Part shown: one piece after another, positions 3,511 to 61,513 of the stretch
Position numbering within the stretch: position 1 is the first letter of the stretch
Layout: each line of letters starts with the position of its first letter
Assembly: GCA_964016885.1 (NCBI GenBank)
Contig: OZ024742.1
Span: 269,824,001-269,888,000, forward strand
Reading direction: 5' to 3'
Length of the DNA: 64,000 nucleotides
Source of the DNA: Eledone cirrhosa
Taxonomy: Eukaryota
Notes under the pieces: generated by a model
The model's input: the letters and a program-made list of their open reading frames with translations, nothing else
The model's database searches: none
What the model was told of the DNA's origin: nothing
Made by a program: the position numbers and the translations under genes

Positions 3511-3593
3511 TATATAAATTAACCCACTCGATATGCAAATTGGGTTACTCAGCCGTTAATATGCATAAGGTAAGTATATACGTTCAACACTCT

Positions 3594-3658
3594 GGCAGGA
3601 TGGTATACGTTGCTGACGATAGCTAATAAGCTTGAAACTAGTACAGCGTTCCTTTGTC
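3594..3658 (+). ncRNA. Type I hammerhead ribozyme (family A)
   Basis: ACGTTG-CTGACGA-T-AGCT-AATA-AGCT-T-GAAA-CTAG-TA-CAGCGT; stem I ACGTTG/CAGCGT, extended by AGGA/TCCT beyond a bulge; predicted cleavage GUA after 3643. Confidence 0.88.
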
Positions 3659-4102
3659 AGTGTTGAACAAACGAGCAACGATGGTTGCTAGACACTACGG
3701 CTTTATACGGGATGTTTGTTTACAAACACACCGAGCATTGTAATAAATGTTCGGTGAATCCATACGTACATGAATATATGTGTGCATGTATGTATATATA
3801 TATACATACTACTGTACGTCTGTATACATATATGTATGTACGAGGATTGTAATAAATGTTCAGTGAATCCATACGTACATGTATATATGTGTGCATGTAT
3901 GTATATATATATACATACTACTGTACGTCTGTATACATATATGTATTTAAGTAACAGCCGTACTAAGAGTGGGAAATGAAATTTCGTTTCATTTTTTCCG
4001 TTTATCGTTTTCGGTGCACCCGGCTGATTAACCCACTCGATATGCAAATTGGGCTACTCAGCCGTTAATATGCATAAGGTAAGTATATACGTTCAACAAT
4101 CT

Positions 4103-4167
4103 GGCAGGATGATATACGTTGCTGACGATAGCTAATAAGCTTGAAACTAGTACAGCGTTCCTTTGTC
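4103..4167 (+). ncRNA. Type I hammerhead ribozyme (family A)
   Basis: Same core as 3594-3658; CTGACGA 4122-4128; predicted cleavage after 4152. Confidence 0.88.
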
Positions 4168-4423
4168 AGTGTTGAACAAACGAGCAACGATGGTTGCTAG
4201 ACACTACTGTTTTATACGGCATGTTTGTTTACAAACACACCGAGCATTGTAATAAATTTTCGGTGAATCCATACGTACATGTATATATGTGTGCATGTAT
4301 GTATATATATATATATACATACTACTGTATGTCTGTATACATATATGTATGTACGTGTATATACTTTTATTTAAGTAACAGCCGTACTAAGAGTGGGAAA
4401 TGAAATTTTGTTTCATTTTTTCC

Positions 4424-4458
<35 letters not shown>

Positions 4459-4470
4459 TATATATATATA

Positions 4471-5180
4471 GAATATTTGATAATATACCGTATGTTTATT
4501 GAGAAACATTTTGAAGAGCATTCGCTATGAGTTTGAAAGTATTGACTATGTCACTTACTTAGTCCCGTTAAAAACAAAGGGAAACAACTGATGGTCATTT
4601 CTCGCTCGTTAGCAGTTATCAAGATTGCATAGCCCTTCGCTTCCGACGAGATATATAGAAGCTGGATTGTTATAGAATTCCAGTGATGTTTAAGAGCTGA
4701 TTAAGCAGAGCAGTTGCCAGTTAAGCAAACATCAAGAATTGGTACCAGTGCTCTGAAATAGCGATGTATTCATGAAAGTATGTATAGTATATTTGATAAT
4801 ATACTGTATGTTTATTTCAAAATATTTTGAAGATCATTCGCTATGAGTTATAAAGTAGTAACTGTGTGACTAACTAAACAAAGGGAAGAAACCGAATATA
4901 CTATAACATACATTCATATTACCTCGCTATTTCAGAGCACTGATACTAATTCCTATTTTTTTGCTGGACCGGTTCTGTTTAATTAGCTCTTAAACATCAT
5001 TTGAATTTTATAAGAATCCAGCGTCAATAATTCTCGGCGGAAGCGAAGGGATATGCAATCTTGATAACTGTTAACGAGCGAGATTTTGGCCATCGGCTGC
5101 TTTCCTTTGTTTTTGCCGAGACTAAATAAGTGACATAGTCACTACTTCAAAACTCATAGGGAATGGTCATCAAAATGTTG
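4471..5180. repeat. Tandem-plus-inverted repeat element (~316 bp unit) with a degenerate HHR-like motif
   Basis: ATATTTGATAATATA recurs at ~4473 and ~4789; 4897-5180 is an inverted copy of ~4505-4790; copies carry TTGA(A/T)GA...GAAA-GT..AC-TA-TGTC variants. Confidence 0.7.
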
Positions 5181-6850
5181 GGTTTCACTTCAGTTTATTA
5201 TAAGTTTCCGATTGGTTCGATAACCGGAAGGTCGTTTATATATTGACAAAACACTTTCGTCAAACATTCTTTGACCTCCTCAGTGACTAGGTTTTTATTT
5301 TGTCTCACACATCTGTACTACCACATCTTATTTTTGTGTGTTGTGTGCTTAGTTTACGCATGTGTTACATTGTGTGCGTGTTTGTGTGTGTTTATGTGTG
5401 TTTGTGCTTGTGTGTGTGCGTTTATTCATTTATTTATGTGGTTAATAATTTGACACTAGTTGGTTTGTTTGTTCTATCTCTGTGTGTCTGATTTGTTTTG
5501 TTAGTTTGGTTTTTGTGTGTCTGTCCTTAATCACTTGTAGTGATGTTGTAATTCCACTCATGTTTTCTGTTTAATCTTGGTGGAGTCCCTTATATTCGTT
5601 GCCTCTGTGATTTGCCTGAGCAGTGCATCTTTTCCTTGTGTGGATATAATTGTTATCTCTATATTCTCTAATGTGCTTACATGTTATATTTTTTAATGTT
5701 GATGGAGTACTGATGAATTTTTCCCATCCTGGAATTCTCGCCAGTGTTCACTTATCCTTTCTCATATGCTACGGGCTGTTTCACCTATTTATGCAATATT
5801 CTTATTCCTACACTGTTCCTCAGTACATCTTATGTCATATACTACCTTCCTAGTTTTGCACTTAATTTGTGGGCTTAGCTGGCAGACAATGGATTTCCAA
5901 TCAGCACTAGGAGTTCTTTGTAATGGTTATGTTTTGCTAATTAGGGTTTTTATAAGAATACCTGGTCTTTCAACTATCTTAATATTTAATTTAAGCTTGT
6001 TCGCATCTAGGGGTTGTGTTGACGAACATTACACTCTGGTATTTATTGTATCGTACCATAAGTTTAATTTATTTGCCTTATTCTTAATCCTTTCTATTCT
6101 CTTCCAAAATGTGCTCCTGCACATGGCGCAAGTTATATTTGCACCATGTTCAATAAAATTTGCCCATTTGTTTCTAGCTCCTTTATATACCCTGACCTTG
6201 TCTCTCTAATTGAAGCCAGCAAACTGCGTGCAGTGGATGAAGTGTTGTATGTGTCTCTCTAATTCGTTGGGTTTGCACATGCGGGACACGTTTCTCTTCA
6301 CTCTTACTAAGTCCGCAATCACTATGTTGATCTTTATATGATCCGAAACAGCTGCGTTTCGGTGGATCAGGTATTTAGAGGTCTTGGGTTTGGCATAACA
6401 GGAATGTAGGATTTGCGTTCTATTACTAATAGTTTGCAACCAGACTATTGTCTAGTATAGGTAATCTATGGTCGGGGTGTTTATTTGGGTAGTCCATAGT
6501 AACTTTGATACTCTTGTGGATGGATGTAGATATTTACTGGTTGCTTTCCATGGTGTTCTTCTCTAAATTCTGACTGTTCTTCTGTGGGGGGTCTTTTACT
6601 ACAATATTTATGTCATCTACGTAGCGGGAGTACATAGGGTTATAACATTGTCGTCTAATTGGTCCTTAAGCGTTTTGTCTCAATATACTATAACGAGGTT
6701 AGCTAAGTCACCTACAATGCTAACGCCAATGCCTGCTCTTTTCTCCTGAGCATATGCTTTGCCATTAAGTTTGAATATATGTTCCTTAAGGGTTTGTTTT
6801 ATACTGGCCCCCACCGCATGTGCGATCATTGTCTTTAATTCATCATGGTT
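5181..6850 (-). mobile_element. 5'-truncated decayed Penelope-like element (RT + GIY-YIG + pLTR with HHR)
   Basis: Minus-strand FKLNGKAYAQEKRAGIG..GDLANL and YSRYVDDI (~6600-6790); GIY-YIG CKTRKVVYDIRC..IGETARS..ERI.EHW (~5540-5870), homologous to 22918-23301; HHR-like CTGAGGA-GGTCAAA..TTTGAC-GAAA at ~5243-5288. Confidence 0.85.
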
Positions 6851-22689: not shown

Positions 22690-22720
<31 letters not shown>

Positions 22721-22917
22721 ATACTTTGGGAGGGTCATGTTGCCAATAAGAAACACACGCACCAGTTGCTTTCACTTCAATTTATTATATATTTATAAAT
22801 TTATAAATTTACAAATCTACAAACTTATAAATTTCTGGTTGGTTGGTTGGTTCCACAACCAGATAGTTGTTTATATATAGTCATAGTCCTTTCGTCACAC
22901 ACTCTGTGACCTCTTCA

Positions 22918-23301
22918 TGTATAGATAAGAAATGTATAACCTGTAAAATAGGCCCCCATATTAACTGTAAAACTAGAAATGTAGTGTATAGCATAAGATG
23001 TACTGAAGGACAATGTAGAAACAAAAATATAGTGTACATAGGTGAGACAGCTCGTAGTATAGGGGAACGAATAAATGAACACTGGCGAGACCTTCAAGAT
23101 AATAAAGAATCACCTGTGCTCTACCAACATGCTAAGATAGAACACAGGGGTAAATTAGAGAACATAGAAATAAAAATAGAATCCACACACAGAAAAGATG
23201 CAATGTTTAGGCAAATTACAGAGACAGTAAGCATAAAAGAATTACAACCAAAATTAAATAGAAAATATGAGTGGAACAGCAACATCACAACTTACAATTA
23301 A
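22918..23301 (+). CDS. Penelope GIY-YIG endonuclease domain (5'-truncated, open frame)
   Basis: C..KCITC....NCKTRNVVYSIRC...C....VYIGETARSIGERINEH...S.VLYQH..H...E...IK...PKLNR. Confidence 0.9.
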   Translation, partial: CIDKKCITCKIGPHINCKTRNVVYSIRCTEGQCRNKNIVYIGETARSIGERINEHWRDLQDNKESPVLYQHAKIEHRGKLENIEIKIESTHRKDAMFRQITETVSIKELQPKLNRKYEWNSNITTYN

Positions 23302-23509
23302 GGACAAAATGAAAACACACACACACATAGAACAAACAACCAACCAACAATAAATAAATAAATAAATAAACAAATAGATCAATGAACACAAACACACACA
23401 GACACCCGGATGTGGCGAATGCGCAAACTGAGCACACAACACACACACAGAAACAAAATGGCGTAGGACAGAAGAAAGGAAAGGCACAGAATCAAAGAAA
23501 GGAATCCCC

Positions 23510-23553
23510 AGTCACTGAAGAGGTCACAGAGTGTGTGACGAAAGGACTATGAC
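23510..23553 (+). ncRNA. Minimal type I hammerhead ribozyme in PLE pLTR
   Basis: AGTCA-CTGAAGA-G-GTCACA-GAGTG-TGTGAC-GAAA-GGAC-TA-TGACT; stem I AGTCA/TGACT, 1 bp stem III, CUA cleavage triplet. Confidence 0.85.
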
Positions 23554-23774
23554 TATATATAAACACCTATCTGGTTGTGGAACCAACCAACCAACCAGAA
23601 ATGTATAAGTTTGTAGATTTGTAAATTTATAAATTTATAAATATATAATAAATTGAAGTGAAAGCAACTGGTGCGTGTGTTTCTTATTGGCAACATGACC
23701 CTCCCAAAGTATAACAATATCGGTTTCAACACAGGATTTCAGATAAAGAATCTTGCTAAACAAATTCAGAAACG

Positions 23775-23894
<120 letters not shown>

Positions 23895-24290: not shown

Positions 24291-24292
<2 letters not shown>

Positions 24293-25001
24293 AATAGAAT
24301 GAAGCGAAATTTCATTTCTCACTCTTAGTACGGCAGTTACTTAAATGTAGTATGCATGCATTCACACGTACATACATATATGTATACAGTCGTAGAGTAG
24401 TATGTATATATATATACATACATGCACACGTATATATATGCACGTATCGGTTTACCGAACATTTATTATAATGGTCGGTTTGTTTGTAAACAAACAAACA
24501 GCCCGAATTACGCCGTACAGTGTTTAGGCAACCACGTCACCTTTTTGTTCAACACTGACACAGGACTGATGTACTAGTTTCAAGCTTATTAGCTATCGTC
24601 AGCATCGTATACCTTCCTGCCAGATGGTTGAACGTCTGAAAGTATATACTTTCCTTATGCATATTAACGGCTGAGCAGCCTAATTTTCATATCGAGTGAG
24701 TTTAGTCGGCCGGGCGCACCGAAAACGATAAATAGAATAGAATGAAACGAAATTTCATTTCTCTCTCTTAGTACATCACTTACTTAAATGTAAGTATGTA
24801 AGTATGTATACGTACATAAATATATGTATACAGACGTACAGTAGTATGTACATATATATATATATACATACATGCACACATATATATATATGCACGTATC
24901 GGTTTACCGAACATTTATTATAATGCTCGGTTTGTTTGTAAACAAACAAACAGCCCGAATTACGCCGTACAGTGTTTAGGCAACCACGTCACCTTTTTGT
25001 T
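24291..25001 (-). mobile_element. Retrozyme-like family A, locus 2 (~1.6 monomers, period ~443)
   Basis: Reverse-complement homology to 3518-4428; repeated marker at 24311 and 24754; (TA)n flanks. Confidence 0.85.
24557..24621 (-). ncRNA. Type I hammerhead ribozyme (family A)
   Basis: Minus strand ACGATG-CTGACGA-TAGCTAATAAGCTT-GAAA-CTAG-TA-CATC; GATG/CATC is compensatory relative to GTTG/CAGC. Confidence 0.85.
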
Positions 25002-28476: not shown

Positions 28477-31400
28477 CCCGTGACCAAGAAATACCGGGAT
28501 GGCGGCCGGCGGGGAATAGCCATGTCTCTAGGGGAGAACGACCCCTCTAGTCTTGGTTGACACTCGTTCTAGAAGTGGTAACACGAAAAGATTACCCCTT
28601 GGCGGATAAGGATAAAACGCGACAAAATAAAGTAGATGTCTAATGATGAAATCTCATACCGGATCGGCCGTCACCCGGGTAAAAAAGGGCCGCGTCCCTC
28701 AGTGAGGAACCAGACTGGGGTCGAAAAATCAGCTAATGGTTCAAACCTTCCCATCACTTCGGAGCTGGAGACCTCCCATAACCGGAATACTCCTACTGTT
28801 GGCCCTCCATGCTCACCACCAAGAAATCCAAAGAAAAAGAGAGAAAAATGGTCAAGGGAAGATAATAAAGAAGTCCTTGTTGCTTTCTACACTGCCATGT
28901 ACTACCCATCAAATACATCGAATACAGAACAGACATATATCAACTGGAAAAAGAAACATCCCGAAAACAGAGGCTATATTGACAGCAACAAACTAGCCAA
29001 TATACGAAGAAATATTGTAAGAAAAAAGTTACTAACTGATATAGAAATTGATCAGATCAAGCTATTAGCACAAAGTCAGCGAAGGGAAAATGAAACATGT
29101 GTCAGTGAAAACGAGGTAAATTGTAACACTTCGAATCCCAGGGTTGGGGCGGAATCACTGGCAACAGAACAAATTAAAGAAAGGATCGAAAAAGTGGAGG
29201 GAGTGCATGCTCAAGATGAAACTCCAAATGAAAATAATGAGATCGTAAATGATAAAGAAATGAATGAGAATGAACTTGCCAACTTGAAGGATGAAATTAT
29301 GATCGAATGGATGAAAATGAAAGAATCTGACATGGGGCAACGAGACACCCTCCCTAAGATCCAGAACTCCAAACAGAACCAAAAGATAATACACAAGACT
29401 AACATAATTCTCAAAAACATTATCATCACAAACAAACTAAACATTACTGATTTAAATCATCTCTATTGTGCATCGGCTAAAGTCACCATTCACTTATGTG
29501 GAGTGAAGATGAAAAAACAAAGGAATTCCCAAAAGAAATCTACTTGGCAAGAGAACGTCAATTGACAAATAAACCTTCTCCGATCTGACATAGAAATGTT
29601 AACAAACTATAAAGTAGGTGAACATGTTAAACAAACTAAACTTAGAAAATTGAAAAAAAAGTACAGTATAAAATCAACAAGTGACATAGACATGCTGATA
29701 GAAATAATCAAACAAAAAGTGTCGGCCAAAGCTGCTCGTATAAGGCGCTTTGAAAAACGATCTAGATTCTATAAGGATAATAATATGTTCAAAAACAACC
29801 AAAGAAACTTCTACAGAAAAATTGGTAAGTCAACAATAACTGCTAAATCAATACCACCCACGGAGGAATTGCAAGAATTCTGGGAAAAGATCTGGGCCGA
29901 AGAAAAAGTTCATAACATACATGCCCCATGGATAGACAGACAAATGAAAGATAGAGCTCACCTTGAGGAACAAATGTGCGAAAATATAACAGTTGAACAG
30001 TTGCGCTTGGCTCTAAGAAAAACCAGCAAATGGAAATCCCCAGGAAAAGACAAAATACAAAACTTTTGGATAAATGCCTTCACAGAGTCTCATGAGCTGT
30101 TAGCCCAACTTTACAATGAAATAGTTAAGGAGCCAGAAAAGTTACCATCATGGCTAGTTAACGGCATTACATTCCTGCTTCCGAAGAATGATGAGACAAA
30201 CAATCCCAAAAATTACAGACCGATAACTTGCTTGACCACAATGTATAAAATTTTAACATCAGTCCTAACTGAATACACATATGACCACCTGATAACAAAT
30301 GACCTATTTCCCACTGAGCAGAAAGGGTGTAAACGAGGTTCATATGGCTGTAAGGATCAGCTTCTGGTTAACAAAATGATACTGGAAGATTGTCATAATA
30401 GACACAAAAATCTATCGATTGCTTGGATAGATTATAAAAAAGCATTCGATAGTTTGCCACACAGTTGGATTGAAAAATGTTTAGAGATTTTCAAAATATC
30501 CCCCGTTGTCAGGAGGTTTTTGTCATTCAGTATGAAGACATGGAAAACGACACTCCTTTTGAATAGTGAAACAAAATCACTGGAAGCTGGAGAAGTTAAT
30601 ATTAATTGTGAAATTTTTCAGGGTGACACTTTATCACCGCTTTTATTCTGCATCGCACTTATACCATTAAGTAAAATGCTCAATGAAACAAAACATGGAT
30701 ATAAAGTCTATGATAAAACCATTAATCACTTGTTCTACATGGATGACCTGAAACTATTTGCAAAAAATGATGAACAATTGCAAGGGCTATTATCCACTGT
30801 GGAGCAGTTCACTGATGACATTAAAATGGAGTTTGGACTAGACAAATGCGCCAAAGCAACGTTCACCAGAGGAAAGCTGCTGAAGATTTCAGACATTAAT
30901 CTTGATCGGGGGAACGTGATAAGAGAACTTGATCAAGAAAAAACTTACAAATATCTAGGTGTTTGTGAAGGAGACGGAATCAAGCACTCGACAATGAGGG
31001 AAAGGATAAGGAAGGAATGTTACCGCAGAGTAAGAGCAATCTTAAGAACGGAATTGAATGCAAGGAATAGGATCGATGCCATAAACACGCTTGCCATACC
31101 AGTAGTAACCTACAGTTACAATGTCATCAACTGGTCAAGCACAGAGATCCGTAGGCTCCATACAAAAATTCGAAAACTCTTAACAATGCACAGAATGCAT
31201 CACCCTAAGGCAGATATAGATAGAATATATCTCCCTAGGAAAGAAGGAGGACGTGGGTTAATCCAGTTAGACATTGCGTTGAAAACTGCAACAATTGGAT
31301 TATCTACATATCTAAGTGAATCACATGATTGGATGATCAAACTCGTTTTGAAACACGAAAGCATCAAAAGATCATATTCCATTACAAAAGATGCACAAAG

Positions 31401-32293
31401 ATACAGTAATGGACTACAAATTTCAGAAGTCCCATTTACTGCTGAAATGGAAAACACAGAAAAAGCAAAGCAGGTAAAAGTAACTGCAAAGAAGGAACTG
31501 CTACAGAAACTGGCTAAGAAATGGCAAGAAAAGCCTCTGTATGGAAAATACCCAGAGCGAGCTAACAATCCTGATGTTGACAAAACTTTAACCCATCAGT
31601 GGTTGGCATCCTCTGGACTGAAATCGGAGACTGAAGGACTGATTATATCAGCACAAGATCAGTGTCTGCCAACAAAAAATTACCAAGCCAACATAATAAA
31701 AAATGGGTGCAGCATTTTGACCTGCCACATCAAAAGAATTGGTGGGAGCATTAACCACCTCCCATACTTGAAAAAGATCACATCTCAATCTTGTGGAACT
31801 TTAGCATCCAAACAGATCGAAAAATAGATGCAAATAGACCTGATATAATATTGAAGGACTTCAAAAAGAGGGTATGCCTGCTAATTGATATGTCTGTTCC
31901 AATAGACAAGAATGTATCTATAAAAATATTTGAAAAATTGAGCAAGTATAAGGACCTGGAGATAGAAATTGGAAAAATGTGGAAATTGAGAACTAAAACA
32001 ATGCCAGTGGTTGTAGGCGCTCTGGGAATGATACCTAAGGGGTCTAATGATTACTTATCGCAAATCCCAGGAAACCCGCGTATAGGAGAAATACAAAAGA
32101 TAGTACTAATGGGAACTGCCCATATACTAAGGAAGATTCTGTCAATATAAGTACATCACAAGTCTAAACACTAAAGATGCATGTGTGAGTATGTATGTTC
32201 TTTCTTGAACATGGCGGACCTTGTTGTCTCTTGAGGTCACTGGTTGTGACTTGGTGATAACTCGTATGAACATAAAGCAAGATAAATGCAACT

Positions 32294-33689: not shown

Positions 33690-36600
33690 GATCGTCTACA
33701 GCGTGATAATGCCACACAAGAGCCACGTGGAGTGACGCAATCACCGGAGGCGGTGAATCCATGGTGGTTATGTAACCATACATTCGCCAATCCTCGATAA
33801 GAGTGTTTAAATGTCGAACCTAAACAGTTCGAATAACGGTGAAATGGAGACTAGAACGTCATGTGACAGACTCTCACCCAACAGGTGCTCCCTGGCTCAG
33901 CAGCAGGGAACTGGCTGTCAACCAAATACTGCTGGTGTCGGGGGAAGAAGAAGAAGGAAAGGGACCAGAACCAACTGGACGAATGAATTGAATAGAACTG
34001 TTTTGCAATGTTACCTGAAGAGTAACCCCAAGGAGAAAGGCTATAGGAAACGGATGCATAACATCTGGAACGAGATAGGTCTATTTATATTAAATGAACA
34101 AAAATTGGCCGGGCAGGCTCGGGTAATAAGAACTAATGGGTGTATAAGCGAGCTGGAACTGGAGGAACTGGGCAGAGAGATTGGCTTGGAGATGGAGGGT
34201 GGAGTATGCCGCGCAAACGAGCCAGTGGGAAATGAAGGTGAAGAGGGCGAGAGAACGGAGGAACCACCCGAAGCAGGCAATGATCTGAATACTGAGATAA
34301 ATAATACCTGGAACAGAGATACGGCCACTGAGGAGATGAATGCTGACGGGCTAGGACAAGATTTGGTTGATATCCTAAATTTAGTGGTAGATGAATTGAA
34401 CAATGATAGTGGGAGACCTATGAACCTAGATTTGTAGACAGGAAAAAGTTAAAAGAAACAACAGCTAAGGTAAACAAAGTCATCCCATACCTTGAGGCGA
34501 GGAGCCTTCACCAGTGCAACAATATCCTCAAAGCAACAGCAAATACGGCGAGGAAACTACTTGGTATAAAAGCGAGAGGAAACAACAGACAAGAAAGAGC
34601 AGAGCCTTGGTGGAAGAAACGACTGAGTGGTCAAATCAGGGAAATGAGAAATGACATTGGAAAGATTGAGTCCCTACTGAATGGGACACTAAAAAACATA
34701 GACACTAAAAATAGACTGGAAACAAAGTACAAAACTAGGAGGAAAAAGCTAAATATTATCATAGAGGAACTGAAGCAACGCATTGTAGCAAAGAGTGCAA
34801 AAATCAGGCGATACGAGAACAGAGTCAGTCAGTATAAACAGAACCGCATGTTCGACAACAGCCAGAAGATGCTGTTTGGACAGCTTGAAGGGAGAGAAAG
34901 AGGCAACGACTTGATCCCTGAGGCGGAACAAACTAAAACATTCTGGAGAGGAATATGGGAGCAGGATGTTAGACATAATGACCAGGCAGTGTGAATTGAG
35001 ACAGTACAGAAGGAGATCAGTGAACAGGCACACCAACAAACTGATTTGAGTATCACAGTTGACACTCTTAAGGAGCAGGCCAAAAAACTAACCAACTGGA
35101 AATCACCAGGCCCAGATGGTGTGCAGGGGTATTGGATTAACAATATAACATCCCTCCACCCGAAACTGACAACCATGTTCAATGACTGCTTGATGTCAGG
35201 TGAGGTACCAGAGTGGTTGACAAAAGGTACCACAATTCTGATAATGAAAGACCGAATCAAGGGAAATGATGTTACCGACTATAGACCTATCACATGTCTG
35301 TCCGTAATGTGGAAACTGTTGACGAGCATTGTGTCTGAGGAAATCTACCATCACCTCCACACAAACAACTTGTTACCGGACGAACAGAAAGGATGCCGAA
35401 AGAAGTCACGTGGTACAAAGGACAAGTTACATATTGATAAGATGGTAATGGGAAATTGCAAGAGGTGACACACTGATCTTGCCATGGGATGGATAGACTA
35501 CAGAAAGGCATTTGACATGGTGCCTCATTCTTGGATCACCAAAAGCCTGGAGATCTTCAAGGTGGCAGATAACATCACACGGTTGTTGGGCAAAAGTATG
35601 AGGTCATGGGAAACAGAGTTGACATCAACTGGAGAATCCTTGGGAAGCGCGAAGATCAAGAGAGGTATCTTCCAGGTAGATAGCCTGTCCCCTCTGTTGT
35701 TTGTCCTTGCCCTGATGCCCCTGACCAGTGTACTGCGAAAAGTGAGAGCAGGATACAGGTTTGGAAAGGGAGGGCTTCCCATCAATCACCTCCTCTTCAT
35801 GGACGATCTTAAGCTCTTTGGGAAGAGTGAGAAGTAGTTGGATGTGCTTGTTGACACTGTCCGTATTTTCAGCAATGTTATATGTATGAAATTTGGTATT
35901 AGTAAGTGTGGAGTCATTGTAATGAGGAGGTGTAGGTTGAGCAGAAGTAACGGAATCCAGATACCAACAGGTGAGATGATAAAGGAAATTGACTCTGAGG
36001 AAGGACACAAGTATTTGGGCGTGCTGGAGGCTGATGGCATCAAGAACAAAAAAATGAAGGAATTGTTAAGAACTGAATACATTCGGAGAGTAAGGAGCGT
36101 ATTGAAGTCACATCTGAACAGCAGAAATGCCATAAGCGCAGTAAATTCCCGAGCTGTGTCTATTATTAGGTACAGTGCGGGAATTCTGAGATGGAATGTT
36201 GCTGAACAAAAAAAAATGGATAGGAAGACTAGGAAGCTATTGACTATCTACAACAGGTTCCACAAGAGGAGTGATGTCGATAGACTCTACCTAAGGAGAT
36301 CTGAGGGTGGAAGAGGTCTTATCAGCATAGAGGACTGTGTTCAGATGGAGAAAAACAACCTACACAAATACATGACTGATAGTAAGGAGCCAATGCTCAG
36401 AACTGTACTGAAGGAGGGGACAATAGGCCAGGGGATGTCCAAGGAGGAAATAACATCAAGGAGAAAGAGCAGCCTTCAGGAAATATCTCTTCATAGTACC
36501 TTCTTTGGGAAAACTGAATTTAGAGATCCACAGACATGGAACTGGTTGAAAAGAGGAGACCTTAAAAAGGCTACAGAAGGAATGTTAATGGCTGCGCAGG

Positions 36601-37312
36601 AGCAGGCCCTCAAAACGAAGTGGTTAAATCACCACATTTACAAGGAGGAGGCTAGCCCACTGTGCAGGATCTGTGGAGAGAGAGAGAGGAGACTGTGGCT
36701 CACATTGTATCCGAGTGTAAACACCTAGCCCAGACTCACTATAAGGGCTGGAGACATGATGTGATGGGCAGGGTGATTCACTGGCACCTATGCAAAGTAA
36801 ACAATTTACCACATTCTGAGATGTGGTATGAGCATAATCCAGAGGCGGTGATAGAAAACGATCAGGTGAAGCTGCTGTGGGATTTTAGGATACAGACGGA
36901 CAAGAAACTGAAACACAATAGACCTGACCTGGTGGTTTTGGACAAAGAAAAAAGATCGTGCCTGATTGTGGATGTGGCCTGCCCTTTCGACACGAGAGTG
37001 CAAGAGAAGGAGAGGGAAACAATTAACCGATACCAGGACTTAAAGTGCGAGTTAAAAAGGAATTGGAACTGCCATGAAGTCAAAGTGATCCCGATTGTCA
37101 TAGGCGCACTAGGGACTATCTCAAAAAGTTTTCAAGGATGGTTAAAGAAAATTGGCCCCTTCACGCTTTTTGGAACGCTTCAAAAGGCATGCTTGCTGGG
37201 AACAGCAAGAACCCTCCGATACGTCCTGAATATCTCAGGCTGCAGGTAGTGGTTTGATATTAATCTCAACAAACTTTCCAGTTAACTGACATCAATGACT
37301 GAGACTTAAAGA

Positions 37313-37371: not shown

Positions 37372-39062
37372 GATTTCTTTATTAACCACAAGGGTTTACA
37401 TAAAGTAGACATTAAGGACAGTGCAGGATACAGGACGGTACATATGGGCATTTCTGCGTGTAAAAAAAAAAACAAAAAAAAACAGAGGGTGTAACAAAAA
37501 ATAACAATGAAAAATTCCCCAATAGGGGGGAGACTTCGGAGGGACATTTGTGGAGAAAGCCCAGTAAAAAGCCACAATGACCCTGACCACCAAGGCAAGT
37601 GCCCTCTCCCTGTTTTCCACCTTTAATTTACAGATATATACTCAGAGTAGGCCCATTCACTCGGGCCATTCTTGCTTCTCTCACCCATCTTTCAACAAAA
37701 TGCTGGGAGGAGAGCACTTCCCTCTCTACCCTGATTTTCCTTTTCAAATGAAATTTGAAAAAGTCAATCAGAGCATCACCGAAGAGGTAATTGCTCGTCT
37801 TCAGCCCTTTCAAACGTGTCCACCATACTATCTCTTTCGCCATGGCCACCAGACAGATAAAAACTGCCTGCCCTTCCCGGCTAAAGGAGGAGGGCGGGGC
37901 AATCCTCACGATGGACTCAGATGATAGTCGGATCCGTCCTAAACGCGACAGCATGTGTTCGACATAAACCCACAAGTCAGCAATTTTCGGACACTGGACG
38001 AGTGCGTGCAGGACGGTTTCGTCGCCCTGCGCGCATCTCGGACATGCCCGGCTGACGGCACCTCCATGCCTGTAGAGTTTATCCCGAACTGGCAAGGCTC
38101 CTCGGTAGCAGTGCCAGGCCAGAGATTTCTGGAAGTTGTCCATAGGCCCTGGCCCGAAAGTTCTTCCGAAGAGATTGGCTAGTTTATTTTCGTCGACGCC
38201 TAGAGTTTCCCCAAGTACGTCGTCGCTCTTCCCCTCCACTAATCCTCTATAGAATGCCGAGGTGGAGTTTCCACCGATCACATTGCCCGATTGGTCGAGG
38301 GCTGTGAGCGCCTGAAGACATATTGCAGTCTCCAGGCGCTCCCTCTCGGTCTTCGCTTGACCCAGGACTGCAGCTCCGTCAAGGAAACGAGCTGGGGAAA
38401 TACGTGTCTAGCAAACGGCGACCACACCTGATCACCGTCGAGGAAGAGGTGGAGATGTCGTAGCCTGAGCGCGTGTCTGCGCATCATCAGCCACGGCATG
38501 CCCAGCCCTCCACGTAGCGGGTGTTGACAACAGATGGACCGCCTGACCACCGGAGCGCGTCCCTTCCACAAAAAGCGAAAGAGCAAACGCTCCAGCGCAG
38601 TCAGGCGAGGCTTAGGACAAGGTACGACGGTCAGGCGGTAGCAGATGACGGACGCGATGTACGCGTTAGCCACCTCCGCTCGACCTTTCAGGGATAGCTT
38701 CCTCTCCGCCCATTTCTGGGTGAGAGAAGCCACCCTGCTCGTCACCTCGTCCCAGTTTTTGTCCGTCTGGAGGTCCGGACCGAACCAGACCCCTAGCAAT
38801 TTAACCGGTCCGTCCGTCCAGCGTCCGACGACGCTGTTGGACGGCATGGACCGGCCTCTCCAGGTGCCGAGCTGCAGGCCCACTGACTTTTCCTGGTTGA
38901 TCATTGCTCCTGTCACCGCTTCGTATTCTCTTAGTGTAGTGCCGATCGCCTCGATGAGTTTGTCGTTCGACACCACTACGGTGACATCGTCCGCATATGC
39001 TGACACGGATCTTCCGCATCCTAGTTCGCGCGGGATGCCCCTCAACGTCTCCAGTTTGTGCC
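37372..39062 (-). mobile_element. 5'-truncated Tx1 (L1-group) LINE, GC-rich
   Basis: SAYADDVTV, GAMINQEKS, VKLLGVWF, LSLKGRA, P..GGLG.P, C-terminal CPRC...ETVLHALVQC; 3' UTR with AATAAA runs into the (TTA)n/(TAA)n tract. Confidence 0.9.
37628..39062 (-). pseudogene. Tx1 ORF2 C-terminal RT and zinc knuckle, frameshifted near 38280
   Basis: ORFs 38278-39075 and 37628-38281. Confidence 0.85.
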
Positions 39063-39250
39063 ACCTAATTTGCATATCGAGTGAGTTAATCGGCCGGGGT
39101 ACCTAAAACGATAAACGGATAAAAGGAAACGAAATTTTATTTCTCACTCTTAGTACGGCTGTTACTTAAATAAAGTATGTATACGTACATACATATATAT
39201 ATACCGACGTACAGTAGTATGTATATATACATATACATACATGCACACAT

Positions 39251-39315
39251 GGCAGGAAGGTATACATTGCTGACGATAGCTAATAAGCTTGAAACTAGTA
39301 CAGCGTTCCTTTGTC
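39251..39315 (+). ncRNA. Type I hammerhead ribozyme (family A)
   Basis: ACATTG-CTGACGA-TAGCTAATAAGCTT-GAAA-CTAG-TA-CAGCGT (one stem I mismatch). Confidence 0.82.
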
Positions 39316-39676
39316 AGTGTTGAACAAATGAGCAACGATGGCTGCTTGACCCTGTATTGCTTAATTCGGGATGTTTGTTCATAAACACACCGAGCATTAT
39401 AATAAATGTTCGGTGAATCAATACGTACATATATATATGTGTGCATGTATGTATATATATATACTACTGTACGTCTGTATAGAATATATGTATGTACGTA
39501 TACATACTTATATTTAAGTAACAGCCGTACTAAGTGTGAGAAATGAAATTTCGTTTCATTTTTTCCGTTTATCGTTTTCGGTACCCCGGCCGATTAACTC
39601 ACTCGATATGCAGATTAGGCTGCTCAGCCGTTAATATGCATAAGGAAAGTATATACTTTCAGACGTTCAATCATCT

Positions 39677-39741
39677 GGCAGGAAGGTATACGTTGCTGAC
39701 GATAGCTAATAAGCTTGAAACTAGTACAGCGTTCCTTTGTC
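39677..39741 (+). ncRNA. Type I hammerhead ribozyme (family A)
   Basis: GGCAGGAAGGTATACGTTG-CTGACGA-TAGCTAATAAGCTT-GAAA-CTAG-TA-CAGCGTTCCTTTGTC. Confidence 0.88.
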
Positions 39742-39939
39742 AGTGTTGAACAAAAGAGCAACGATGGTTGCTAGACACTGTACGGCTTAATTCGGGATGT
39801 TTGTTTACAAATACACCGAGCATTATAATAAATGTTCGGTGAATCCATACGTACATATACTTATATGTGTGCATGTATGTATATATATATATACATACTA
39901 CTGTACGTCTGTATACATATATGTATGTACGTATACATG

Positions 39940-40000
<61 letters not shown>

Positions 40001-42179: not shown

Positions 42180-42254
42180 ATATATATATATATATATAAA
42201 TGTAAGTATGTATGTATACGTACATACATATATGTATACAGACGTACAGTATCA

Positions 42255-42302
<48 letters not shown>

Positions 42303-42444
42303 CAGGTACACATACATATATGTACGTATCAGTTTAGCGGACGCTTATTATAGCGCCCGCTTTGTTCGTTTGTAAACAAACTGAACAGCCTGAATTTATG
42401 CCGTACGGTGTTAAGGCAACCACGTCACCTTTTTGTTCAACACT

Positions 42445-42506
42445 GACACAGGAACCATGTACTAGTTTCAAGCTTGTTAGCTATCATCAGCACCGTATAC
42501 CCTTCT
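42445..42506 (-). ncRNA. Type I hammerhead ribozyme (family A)
   Basis: Minus strand ACGGTG-CTGATGA-TAGCTAACAAGCTT-GAAA-CTAG-TA-CATGGT. Confidence 0.8.
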
Positions 42507-42696
42507 ACATATACATACATACTTACATTTAAGTAAGTGCCGTATTAAGAGTGAGAAATGAAATTTCGTTTTCATTTTATTACAACTGATCGTTTTCGGT
42601 ACGCCTGGCCGACATAACTCACTCGATATGCAAATTAGGCTGCTCAGCCGTTAATTTTCATAAGGAAAGTATATACTTTCGAACGTTCAACCATCT

Positions 42697-42761
42697 GGCA
42701 GAAGGGTATACGGTGCTGATGATAGCTAACAAGCTTGAAACTAGTACATCGTTCCTGTGTC
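42697..42761 (+). ncRNA. Type I hammerhead ribozyme (family A)
   Basis: ACGGTG-CTGATGA-TAGCTAACAAGCTT-GAAA-CTAG-TA-CATCGT; stem I fully paired. Confidence 0.88.
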
Positions 42762-42909
42762 AGTGTTGAACAAAAAGGTGACGTGGTTGCCTTAACACCG
42801 TACGGCATAAATTCAGGCTGTTAGGTTTGTTTACAAACGAACAAAGCGGGCGCTATAATAAGCGTCCGCTAAACTGATACGTACATATATGTATGTGTAC
42901 CTGTATGTA

Positions 42910-42947
<38 letters not shown>

Positions 42948-43057
42948 TGCTACTGTACGTCTGTATACATATATGTATGTACGTATACATACATACTTAC
43001 ATTTAAGTAAGTGCCGTACTAAGAGTGAGAAATGAAATTTCGTTTTCATTTTATTAC

Positions 43058-43109
<52 letters not shown>

Positions 43110-57095: not shown

Positions 57096-57151
<56 letters not shown>

Positions 57152-57165
57152 TTTTAATATAGATG

Positions 57166-57216
57166 AGATTCTACAGGACTAGAACTGTTTCATTCTTTAG
57201 AAATCATCAGGAATCT
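57166..57216 (-). ncRNA. Type I hammerhead ribozyme (family D)
   Basis: Reverse complement of 59467-59517. Confidence 0.85.
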
Positions 57217-57620
57217 GGGTATCAACAAATAAAAATGGTATTTATAGGTCTCTACAAGTGGTAGGAGAGGGTGGGGAGTGGGATGGGTGTAGGTCATTGG
57301 TTGATAGAAAAGGGAATTCATTAAAAGCTAATTCTACAAAGCTATAGTTTATTTTTATTTATTATGTTTTTAGAGTAACAAGGGCAGACAGAATTCTATA
57401 AACAGGTTCCGGATGGCATACCATTCCTTGTCATTCAGTTTCTCTTAAGCTAACATATATATGTATATATATATATATATATGTGTATGTATGGTGCTTT
57501 TTTCCTTATATATGTGTATATATGTGTGTGTGTGTATATATATATATGTGTATGTATGTGTGTGTGTGTGTATGTATATGTATATATTTGTTTATGTATA
57601 TATATATATATATATATATA

Positions 57621-59005: not shown

Positions 59006-59466
59006 TTTTTTGTGAATGTGTCTGTTGATTTTTGGCATATAGTTGATTAGTTTAAGAGAAGTTCGAAGATAATTGTAAGATATGCACTCAGTATTTTGCA
59101 TCTGTCTACAGAATTCTCTAAACCTTTGTCACTTAGTAGAACCTTAATGATTTTAGCTTTTAAAAAATCTCCATTTCCTTTAATTCTATCGACCATGACT
59201 GACCCCCCACTGATCTTATAGACATCTGTTAGCTTAAGAGAAACTTAATGACAAGGAATGGTATGCCATCCGGAACCTGTTTATAGAATTCTGTCTGCCC
59301 TTGTTACTCTAAAAACATAAATAAATAAAAATAAACTATAGCTTTGTAGAATTAGCTTTTAATGAATTCCCTTTTCTATCAACCAATGACCTACACCCAT
59401 CCCACTCCCCACCCTCTCCTACCACTTGTAGAGACCTATAAATACCATTTTTATTTTTTGATACCC

Positions 59467-59517
59467 AGATTCCTGATGATTTCTAAAGAATGAAACAGTT
59501 CTAGTCCTGTAGAATCT
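59467..59517 (+). ncRNA. Type I hammerhead ribozyme (family D)
   Basis: AGATTC-CTGATGA-T-TTC-TAAA-GAA-T-GAAA-CAG-TTCTAGTC-CTG-TA-GAATCT; predicted cleavage after 59511. Confidence 0.88.
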
Positions 59518-59599
59518 CATCTATATTAAAACTTTTATACTCTGCTATGTATTGAGTACCTTACTTACTGTGGTTACCTCCGATTCAACCCGGAATAAC

Positions 59600-59647
<48 letters not shown>

Positions 59648-61107: not shown

Positions 61108-61513
61108 ACATTTTATATATATATATATAAGTATGTATACGTACATACATATATGTATACAGACGTACAGTAGTATGTATATATATATACATACATGCAC
61201 ATATATATATATATATGTACGTATGGATTCACCGAACATTTATTATAATGCTCGGTGTATTTGTAAACAAACATCCCGTATTAAGTCGTAGTGTCTAGCA
61301 ACTATCGTTGCTCGTTTGTTCAACACTGACAAAGGAACGCAGTACTAGTTTCAAGCTTATTAGCTATCGTCAGCAACGTATGCCTTCCTGCCAGATGATT
61401 TATACATACTACTGTACGTCTGTATACATATATGTATGTACGTATACATACTCATATTAAAGTAACAGCCGTACTAAGTGTGGGAAATGAAATTTCGTTT
61501 CATTTTTTCCTTT
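61108..61513. mobile_element. Retrozyme-like family A, locus 5 (minus 61108-61400, plus 61401-61513)
   Basis: Homology to family A; inversion junction just 5' of the HHR; (TA)n flanks. Confidence 0.85.
61328..61392 (-). ncRNA. Type I hammerhead ribozyme (family A)
   Basis: Minus strand ACGTTG-CTGACGA-TAGCTAATAAGCTT-GAAA-CTAG-TA-CTGCGT. Confidence 0.82.

Follow-up and report, generated by a model that had tools for sequence, protein, structure and literature searches.

Noncoding repeats with a hammerhead ribozyme (HHR) in each unit are dispersed over the window, the 64,000 nt of Eledone cirrhosa DNA that was analyzed (contig OZ024742.1). What are they, what puts them there, and from what kind of RNA are they copied? 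The best explanation, and to our minds a likely one, is that this repeat, family A, is a noncoding HHR repeat of the non-LTR retrozyme kind with at least 24,000 cores in the genome, likely inserted by Penelope-like elements (PLEs) and probably from a circular unit RNA. The non-LTR retrozyme is an already known kind of element, and the copying enzyme and RNA template of animal retrozymes are still presented as proposals in PMC7229834 and bioRxiv 2026.07.22.740005.

Five insertions and their unit

A motif scan of the window, together with a BLAST search of it using the unit at 39301-39726, recovers five loci with eight type I HHR cores, just as the first-pass annotation had reported (Table 1). 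Its other descriptions fare unevenly. Cuts after 39300 and 39726 would indeed leave 426 nt, cleavage itself being a prediction; the upper bound of its 426- to 509-nt monomer, however, is a spacing that stems from a local 109-bp duplication. "Tandem repeat" fits two of the five loci, where two HHRs stand in direct tandem, and not the inverted head-to-head arms of 39063-39943, 42197-43061, and 61108-61513. A position in or next to (TA)n holds except at the left end of 39063-39943, which lies within a broken LINE frame. The "very high density" is real for the window, at 125 cores per Mb, but not for the genome, where the figure is 8 per Mb (about 15-fold lower). In the 3.0-Gb genome, 24,001 sites match the 31-nt core exactly (12,336 on the plus and 11,665 on the minus strand), against 0 for a reversed-pattern control. 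Perhaps the locally high density comes from the many (TA)n tracts of the window.

Table 1. Family A insertions and related features of the window (S and L, short and long 3' ends)
Feature	Position	Strand	Remarks
Insertion 1	3518..4428	+	About 2 units, 5'-truncated; L (long) 3' end into (TA)n; 109-bp duplication inside
HHR core, insertion 1	3613..3643	+	Stem I intact; cut predicted after 3643
HHR core, insertion 1	4122..4152	+	Stem I intact; cut predicted after 4152
Truncated two-armed copy of autonomous Neptune-like PLE (family B), not family A	22716..23777	+	S and L ends; candidate helper type
GIY-YIG frame and HHR inside the family B copy	22867-23301 and 23515-23549	+	
Insertion 2	24291..25001	-	About 1.6 units; flanked by (TA)n left and right, with the L end at 24291
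HHR core, insertion 2	24572..24602	-	Stem I with two mismatches
Insertion 3, inverted arm	39063..39250	-	Unit positions 137-319; outer end neither S nor L, adjoins broken LINE RT frame
Insertion 3, direct arm	39251..39943	+	Two HHRs; S (short) end into (TA)n
HHR core, insertion 3	39270..39300	+	One stem I mismatch; cut predicted after 39300
Reference unit of family A	39301..39726	+	426 nt between successive cut sites; GC content 37%; strong self-pairing
Tail, S (unit 210) to L (unit 271), fixed 3' ends used genome-wide	39510..39571	+	
snRNA-type promoter-like element	39607..39656	+	Octamer-containing 12-mer 39607-39618; TCAGC 39624-39628; TATA-like 39649-39656
HHR core, insertion 3	39696..39726	+	Stem I intact; cut predicted after 39726
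Insertion 4 (subfamily A2)	42197..43061	.	Head-to-head arms, junction near 42507; near-S left end, L right end, both (TA)n
HHR cores, insertion 4	42460-42490 and 42716-42746	- and +	
Insertion 5	61108..61513	.	Head-to-head arms, junction near 61399; ends S on the left and L on the right
HHR core, insertion 5	61343..61373	-	

For a wider view, the window was combined with 100 listed core matches from the first 22.5 Mb of contig C1. This sample comprises 124 cores in 56 regions and 38 units of 419 to 538 nt, measured from cut to cut; being chosen by the exact core, it is biased toward arms that span the cut site and HHRs that are intact, and three of its insertions (L090) may duplicate one event. 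Two main subfamilies emerge from it, about 66 differences apart in 328 columns. Variants of family A, and loose ends running into (TA)n at the L site, are also found in contigs of four of six sequence runs, a source whose kind is not on record and which is silent on expression; three low-depth runs labeled as other organisms carry no weight here for host range.

Family A appears to code for nothing, as the first-pass annotation had said: the longest ATG-initiated ORFs in seven units span 37 to 112 amino acids, and none is common across subfamilies. A 68-amino-acid ORF across the HHR was rejected, being confined to some A1 units. The ends are the S and L sites in (TA)n and not LTRs. Octopus has a SINE named Twin; a tRNA-derived SINE was rejected for family A, there being no tRNA in the window. 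The units have a GC content of 36 to 39% and are predicted to fold strongly. The reference unit reaches a z score of -6.7 in its linear form, and four units folded as circles have 64 to 69% of their bases paired, with z scores of -5.6 to -6.8 (25 dinucleotide shuffles each), to which a (TA)-rich hairpin contributes.

The ribozyme

All eight window copies have the core CUGANGA / GAAA / UH, set among three helices of which stem I is the open one. The 6 bp of stem I give way to a UAU/U internal loop and then to a distal helix. In stem II, 4 bp rest on a U.U pair; the palindrome ACUAGU forms stem III; and the predicted cut site is GUA. The first-pass annotation had credited every copy with a complete type I HHR. 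The core bears this out, but the 6 bp of stem I are intact in only four of the eight copies (three have one mismatch and one has two), and the U.U pair closing stem II had been left out. Nor is the HHR "minimal," as had been implied. The canonical metazoan type I HHR is described as having a 6-bp helix I, a 4-bp helix II, a palindromic helix III of 1 to 2 bp, and cleavage as a dimer, and the minimal HHR of PLEs is distinct from it (PMC4209133). Judged by helix lengths, the family A HHR is of the canonical metazoan type and not of the minimal PLE type. The proposed check with Rfam hammerhead models came back empty, with no hammerhead match at an E value of ≤1 for the whole window or ≤10 for a 200-nt slice. 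The other Rfam matches in the window, microsatellite-driven miRNAs below the gathering score, were rejected.

Is the ribozyme maintained? Across 28 hand-picked copies, which reduce to 24 distinct rows, 93.4% of the cells in the alignment are paired, a figure to be read knowing that in most rows the search pattern dictated stems II and III and that the controls are inflated by relatedness. Helix I reaches 96.5%, with two-sided change included. Its pair 1.3 is G-U in 10 rows, A-U in 7, U-G in 6, and C-G in 1, and stem I changes are compensated between the subfamilies of family A.

A single HHR folds no better than its shuffles (z, -1.3 to +0.8), and in the minimum-energy fold of a lone HHR the core is paired with stem III. 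Two neighbors do better together: the dimer fold is more stable than two separate HHRs by 1.6 to 5.6 kcal/mol in four of four tandem pairs, and in three of them no more than 2 kcal/mol separates it from the free minimum. The dimer is thus the predicted best cutting form. The axolotl ribozyme HHR_Amex2, which shares with family A the U.U base in stem II, is reported to cut weakly alone (22% as a monomer) and well as a dimer (PMC7229834). Among Xenopus retrozymes, eight of nine are reported without cleavage (bioRxiv 2026.07.22.740005).

A promoter-like element before the ribozyme

How might the unit be transcribed? Its 3' part holds a putative promoter. If the TATA-like box is set at -31, the 12-mer falls at -73, TCAGC at -56, and the start at about 39680, the 5' edge of the ribozyme. 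The 12-mer is kept at 10 or more of its 12 bases in all 38 units, against a background of 0.011 per unit length. Host genes offer two counterparts. TATG(C/G)(A/T)AAT(T/G)AG at -77 to -79, together with TATA at -31, precedes the one MRP gene and one U6atac match in six and is present in all but one of the four U6 upstream types; TCAGT at -56 to -58, without the 12-mer, is found in five U1 and two U2 upstream types. The host U1 and most U2 loci also have a TATA-like box near -30 alongside TCAGT (L156-L190 upstream regions). The unit's 12-mer sits 4 to 6 nt closer to TATA than in host Pol III genes, an alignment of the whole promoter to U6 upstream DNA does not beat shuffles, and T6 at unit position 259 and T4 at 275 would stop Pol III. 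Its motifs, matching the upstream regions of host U6, U6atac, and MRP genes as well as U1 and U2, mark the element as snRNA-type promoter-like, and either polymerase could be the one to use it. Two U6atac-like copies (L185 and L186) start directly after TA-rich tracts and have no promoter; these are possibly retrocopies made by a TA-targeting machinery.

The insertion footprint

The footprint of family A, with its S and L ends and head-to-head arms, was missed by the first-pass annotation. Throughout the sample of listed C1 cores plus window, 3' ends are fixed: among 90 arms, 40 end at L (unit 271), 27 at S (unit 210), and 15 doubtfully at one or the other, leaving 8 elsewhere. The two sites are 61 nt apart within the unit, and both run into (TA)n. 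They are also used in combination. Two arms are present in 24 insertions: 17 strictly pair an S end with an L end and 3 a near-S end with an L end (20 of 24 together), 4 are of other makeup, and S+S does not occur. An opposite-strand copy is the 5' neighbor of 56 of the 86 HHR-bearing arms.

The 5' ends behave quite differently. Those of 104 arms populate every decile of the unit and show no enrichment at the predicted start, which six of them approach, or at the cut site, to which a single one comes as close as 6 nt. Arm ends do not coincide with the cut site; the arms run through it, carrying from one to seven cores (86 arms, in a sample for which an intact core was the criterion). The described hallmarks of PLEs include arms that are inverted and truncated, a one-end tail, and insertion into (TA)n (PMC8557442).

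Other elements in the neighborhood

Family A is not the only hammerhead repeat in this genome. A second tandem noncoding HHR family, with 310-nt units and 8,712 exact cores, occurs on contigs C1 and C9 (L091:50-1825; L020-L021; L122). It forms long arrays with inverted arms and resembles family A at the HHR only, where it has the same loop II and U.U base next to a palindrome ACGCGU. Diverged, inverted remnants of this family (69 to 80%) adjoin insertion 1 at 4448-4844 and 4893-4972. A third HHR family, with 19,038 exact cores, is seen in the window at 57150-57435 (-) and 59230-59600 (+). It has the U.U base, a longer stem III, and S and L ends about 67 nt apart; many copies end just upstream of the HHR, and no ORF was found in 30 loci. 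The window also holds three broken LINE-type RT elements (28636-32150, 33811-37249, and 37628-39102), the last interrupted by insertion 3, and, at 5283-6850 (-), an older PLE copy that matches family B at 56% and has a degenerate HHR at 5283.

Penelope-like elements as candidate helpers

Could a resident PLE have supplied the enzyme? Family B, an autonomous PLE of which the window holds a truncated copy, is present in at least 150 copies (95 to 100%), with intact ORFs. These ORFs run from 1,186 to 1,261 codons, and an intact one of 1,229 amino acids ends in a C-terminal GIY-YIG after CX4CXXC. This arrangement, as in Neptune and Nematis, makes the family Neptune-like by sequence. Pfam gives no match on the full ORF and GIY-YIG only on the window fragment. 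The best named relative of a coresident PLE protein, at 69%, is from Octopus vulgaris. The ends of family B are built like those of family A: of 50, 24 are S, 21 are L, 4 continue into the ORF, and 1 is of another kind, with S and L 60 nt apart in (TA)n. S is joined with L in 9 of 10 loci that have terminal ends on both strands. Codons 1 to 40 of the open frame contain both fixed ends (L099-L104 and window 22716-23777). Family B has a minimal-type HHR, in which one more base precedes stem II.

These matching ends support PLE mobilization, which the first-pass annotation had cited as a proposal, and family A was likely inserted by the RT and GIY-YIG endonuclease of (TA)n-targeting PLEs. Which PLE is another matter. 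By blastn, family A has no similarity to family B or to a second PLE end in the window, and the helper is accordingly not pinned to either. A tail of 60 to 67 nt, common to several families, points to a group of TA-targeting PLEs rather than to B alone. A passenger that shares no sequence with the compared PLEs would be recognized by RNA shape and TA microhomology.

Might family A instead be a PLE in disguise? The idea that the repeat is part of an autonomous element, raised in the first-pass annotation as grounds for refutation, was pursued with PLE proteins. As an autonomous PLE with an RT and GIY-YIG ORF, family A was rejected: 48 PLE queries match neither the five reference units nor the DNA in line upstream of 86 arms. 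A subtler version has the units as internal-deletion derivatives or truncated pLTRs of a yet unfound autonomous PLE, with the HHR inherited, an origin proposed in Xenopus (bioRxiv 2026.07.22.740005). In favor of such descent, the insertion anatomy of family A is wholly PLE-like, and the U.U base in stem II recurs in a further abundant HHR family whose ends resemble those of PLEs. We nevertheless regard it as unlikely, in view of the failed protein searches, 29 non-A flanks of family A arms that have no upstream sequence in common, a relaxed-HHR genome scan whose 21 matches include none beside a new PLE ORF, and the canonical 6-bp-stem HHR of family A as opposed to the minimal type of family B (types as described in PMC4209133). 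Since this alternative concerns origin, it can coexist with the best explanation, and a lost or rare parent is conceivable.

The RNA template

What did the enzyme copy? The arms and units of one insertion are near replicas of each other. Two arms of an insertion differ at a median of 2 positions in 125 nt, versus 10 to 15 between loci, and 22 of 26 arm-arm pairs have five differences or fewer, the two largest values coming from arms too short to fill the segment. Within an array, the median difference between units is 1 in 328 columns, versus 11 to 17 between loci, with three differences or fewer in 39 of 44 within-array pairs. In most arrays, units are identical or nearly so, private variants included, for up to seven units and in both arms. 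On a cut linear unit, copying that began at 210 or 271 would end at position 1. The arms extend beyond that point, for which a circle is the simplest explanation. From these sequence comparisons, the template of family A was probably a circular unit-length RNA.

The alternative keeps the element and its PLE helper and changes the template to an uncut or partly cut linear multimer, or else has the RT jump between linear units, with circles as by-products. Family B shows that the same S and L ends and partial tandems can arise without a small circle, and the weak monomer HHR also speaks for a multimer. Some arrays fit as well. One (L086) alternates ABAB over 15 columns, as do those of L016-L021 more weakly, that of L089 is heterogeneous, and in one array units differ at 19 positions; ABAB alternation calls for a template that is a dimer circle or a multimer, or for duplication at a later time. 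Against a multimer stand the 5' ends, which do not pile up at the predicted start or the cut site, and the near identity of the units in most arrays. As the rule for family A it seems doubtful to us, although dimer circles, uncut multimers, or later duplication may also occur or even be the rule, a choice that sequence alone cannot make. Very improbable, finally, is a satellite spread at the DNA level by unequal exchange and extrachromosomal circles with a vestigial HHR, a reading that would account for tandem arrays, length changes of internal microsatellites, and some local duplications but is largely refuted by end polarity, since recombination yields neither 3' ends that are polar and fixed beside 5' ends that are random, nor the S+L rule, nor (TA)n targeting, and to which the compensated stem I changes are also contrary.

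A proposed cycle

How would a circular template fit into a full cycle for family A? The steps can be put as follows. (i) The snRNA-type promoter in the 3' part of a unit would fire about 47 nt before the next cut and read through the array. (ii) Neighboring HHRs are predicted to pair their palindromic stems III and cut as a dimer after GUA, which would free a unit of 420 to 500 nt. (iii) By analogy with the retrozymes of coral, mussel, and axolotl, the unit would be ligated into a circle. (iv) A PLE enzyme would nick (TA)n and prime two cDNAs on one RNA, at unit 210 and unit 271, where the ends are observed. (v) Each cDNA would circuit the template past the cut site, for up to the seven units seen, and stop at random. 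(vi) The two cDNAs would then be joined head to head, or one would be lost.

Taken to its full extent, this cycle would make the insertions a record of how a Penelope enzyme reverse transcribed, in rolling fashion, an RNA circle made by a ribozyme, with two primers 61 nt apart, repeated circuits, and head-to-head joining, and with a captured snRNA-type promoter before the ribozyme restarting the cycle. We offer it tentatively, rating its chances a little short of even.

Comparison with known systems

Family A works, as far as its sequence-level features tell, like the metazoan non-LTR retrozymes and belongs with them, which upholds the retrozyme reading of the first-pass annotation. Metazoan retrozymes are described as lacking PBS and PPT and as expressed in linear and circular unit RNAs (PMC7229834). 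Like those of coral, mussel, and axolotl in that account, family A is made of noncoding, low-GC units, dispersed and arrayed, with one type I HHR each, no LTR, and thousands of copies; its predicted circle is self-paired, and PLEs reside in the same genome. Its units, at 420 to 500 nt, are longer than the 170 to 400 nt given for them, hold a (TA)-rich hairpin, and come from an octopod host. Fixed S and L ends and head-to-head arms do not figure in the available text of PMC7229834, where PLEs are named as candidates only.

Likely PLE dependence, as well as the occurrence of monomers, dimers, and multimers, is shared with vertebrate retrozymes (Li et al. 2026, bioRxiv 10.64898/2026.07.22.740005). 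There, the PLE link is drawn from pLTR homology and co-occurrence; for family A, it comes from the insertion footprint, without pLTR homology. That study puts arrays down to local amplification and, by its available text, sampled no mollusc. Family A also resembles EN+ PLEs of the Neptune and Nematis type in its partial tandems, inverted 5'-truncated arm, one-end tail, and (TA)n target (Craig et al. 2021, PMC8557442). It differs from them in having no ORF and a canonical rather than a minimal HHR, and its tail of 61 nt (60 nt in family B) compares with 30 to 40 bp in EN+ PLEs. Nonautonomous PLE passengers such as MRC1 are known (PMC8557442). Another parallel is newt satellite 2, which, as cited in PMC2220036, bears an HHR and has a Pol II promoter of the snRNA type inside its unit. 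Family A matches it in weak palindromic stem III, predicted dimer cleavage, and, putatively, internal snRNA-type promoter. In the literature outside subscription journals, Repbase, and Dfam, no account of a cephalopod retrozyme or of S and L ends in retrozymes was found.

What, then, does family A offer? This octopod genome is predicted to contain hammerheads by the tens of thousands, of a kind that escapes Rfam. It unites a young family with 24,000 copies or more, an intact candidate helper type, and matching two-ended scars, which makes both the PLE link and the circular-template model directly testable, and the short noncoding template would be a simple substrate for the poorly understood insertion reaction of PLEs. 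If the proposed cycle is true, animal retrozymes would be independent circular replicons that borrow PLE machinery, not pLTR deletions.
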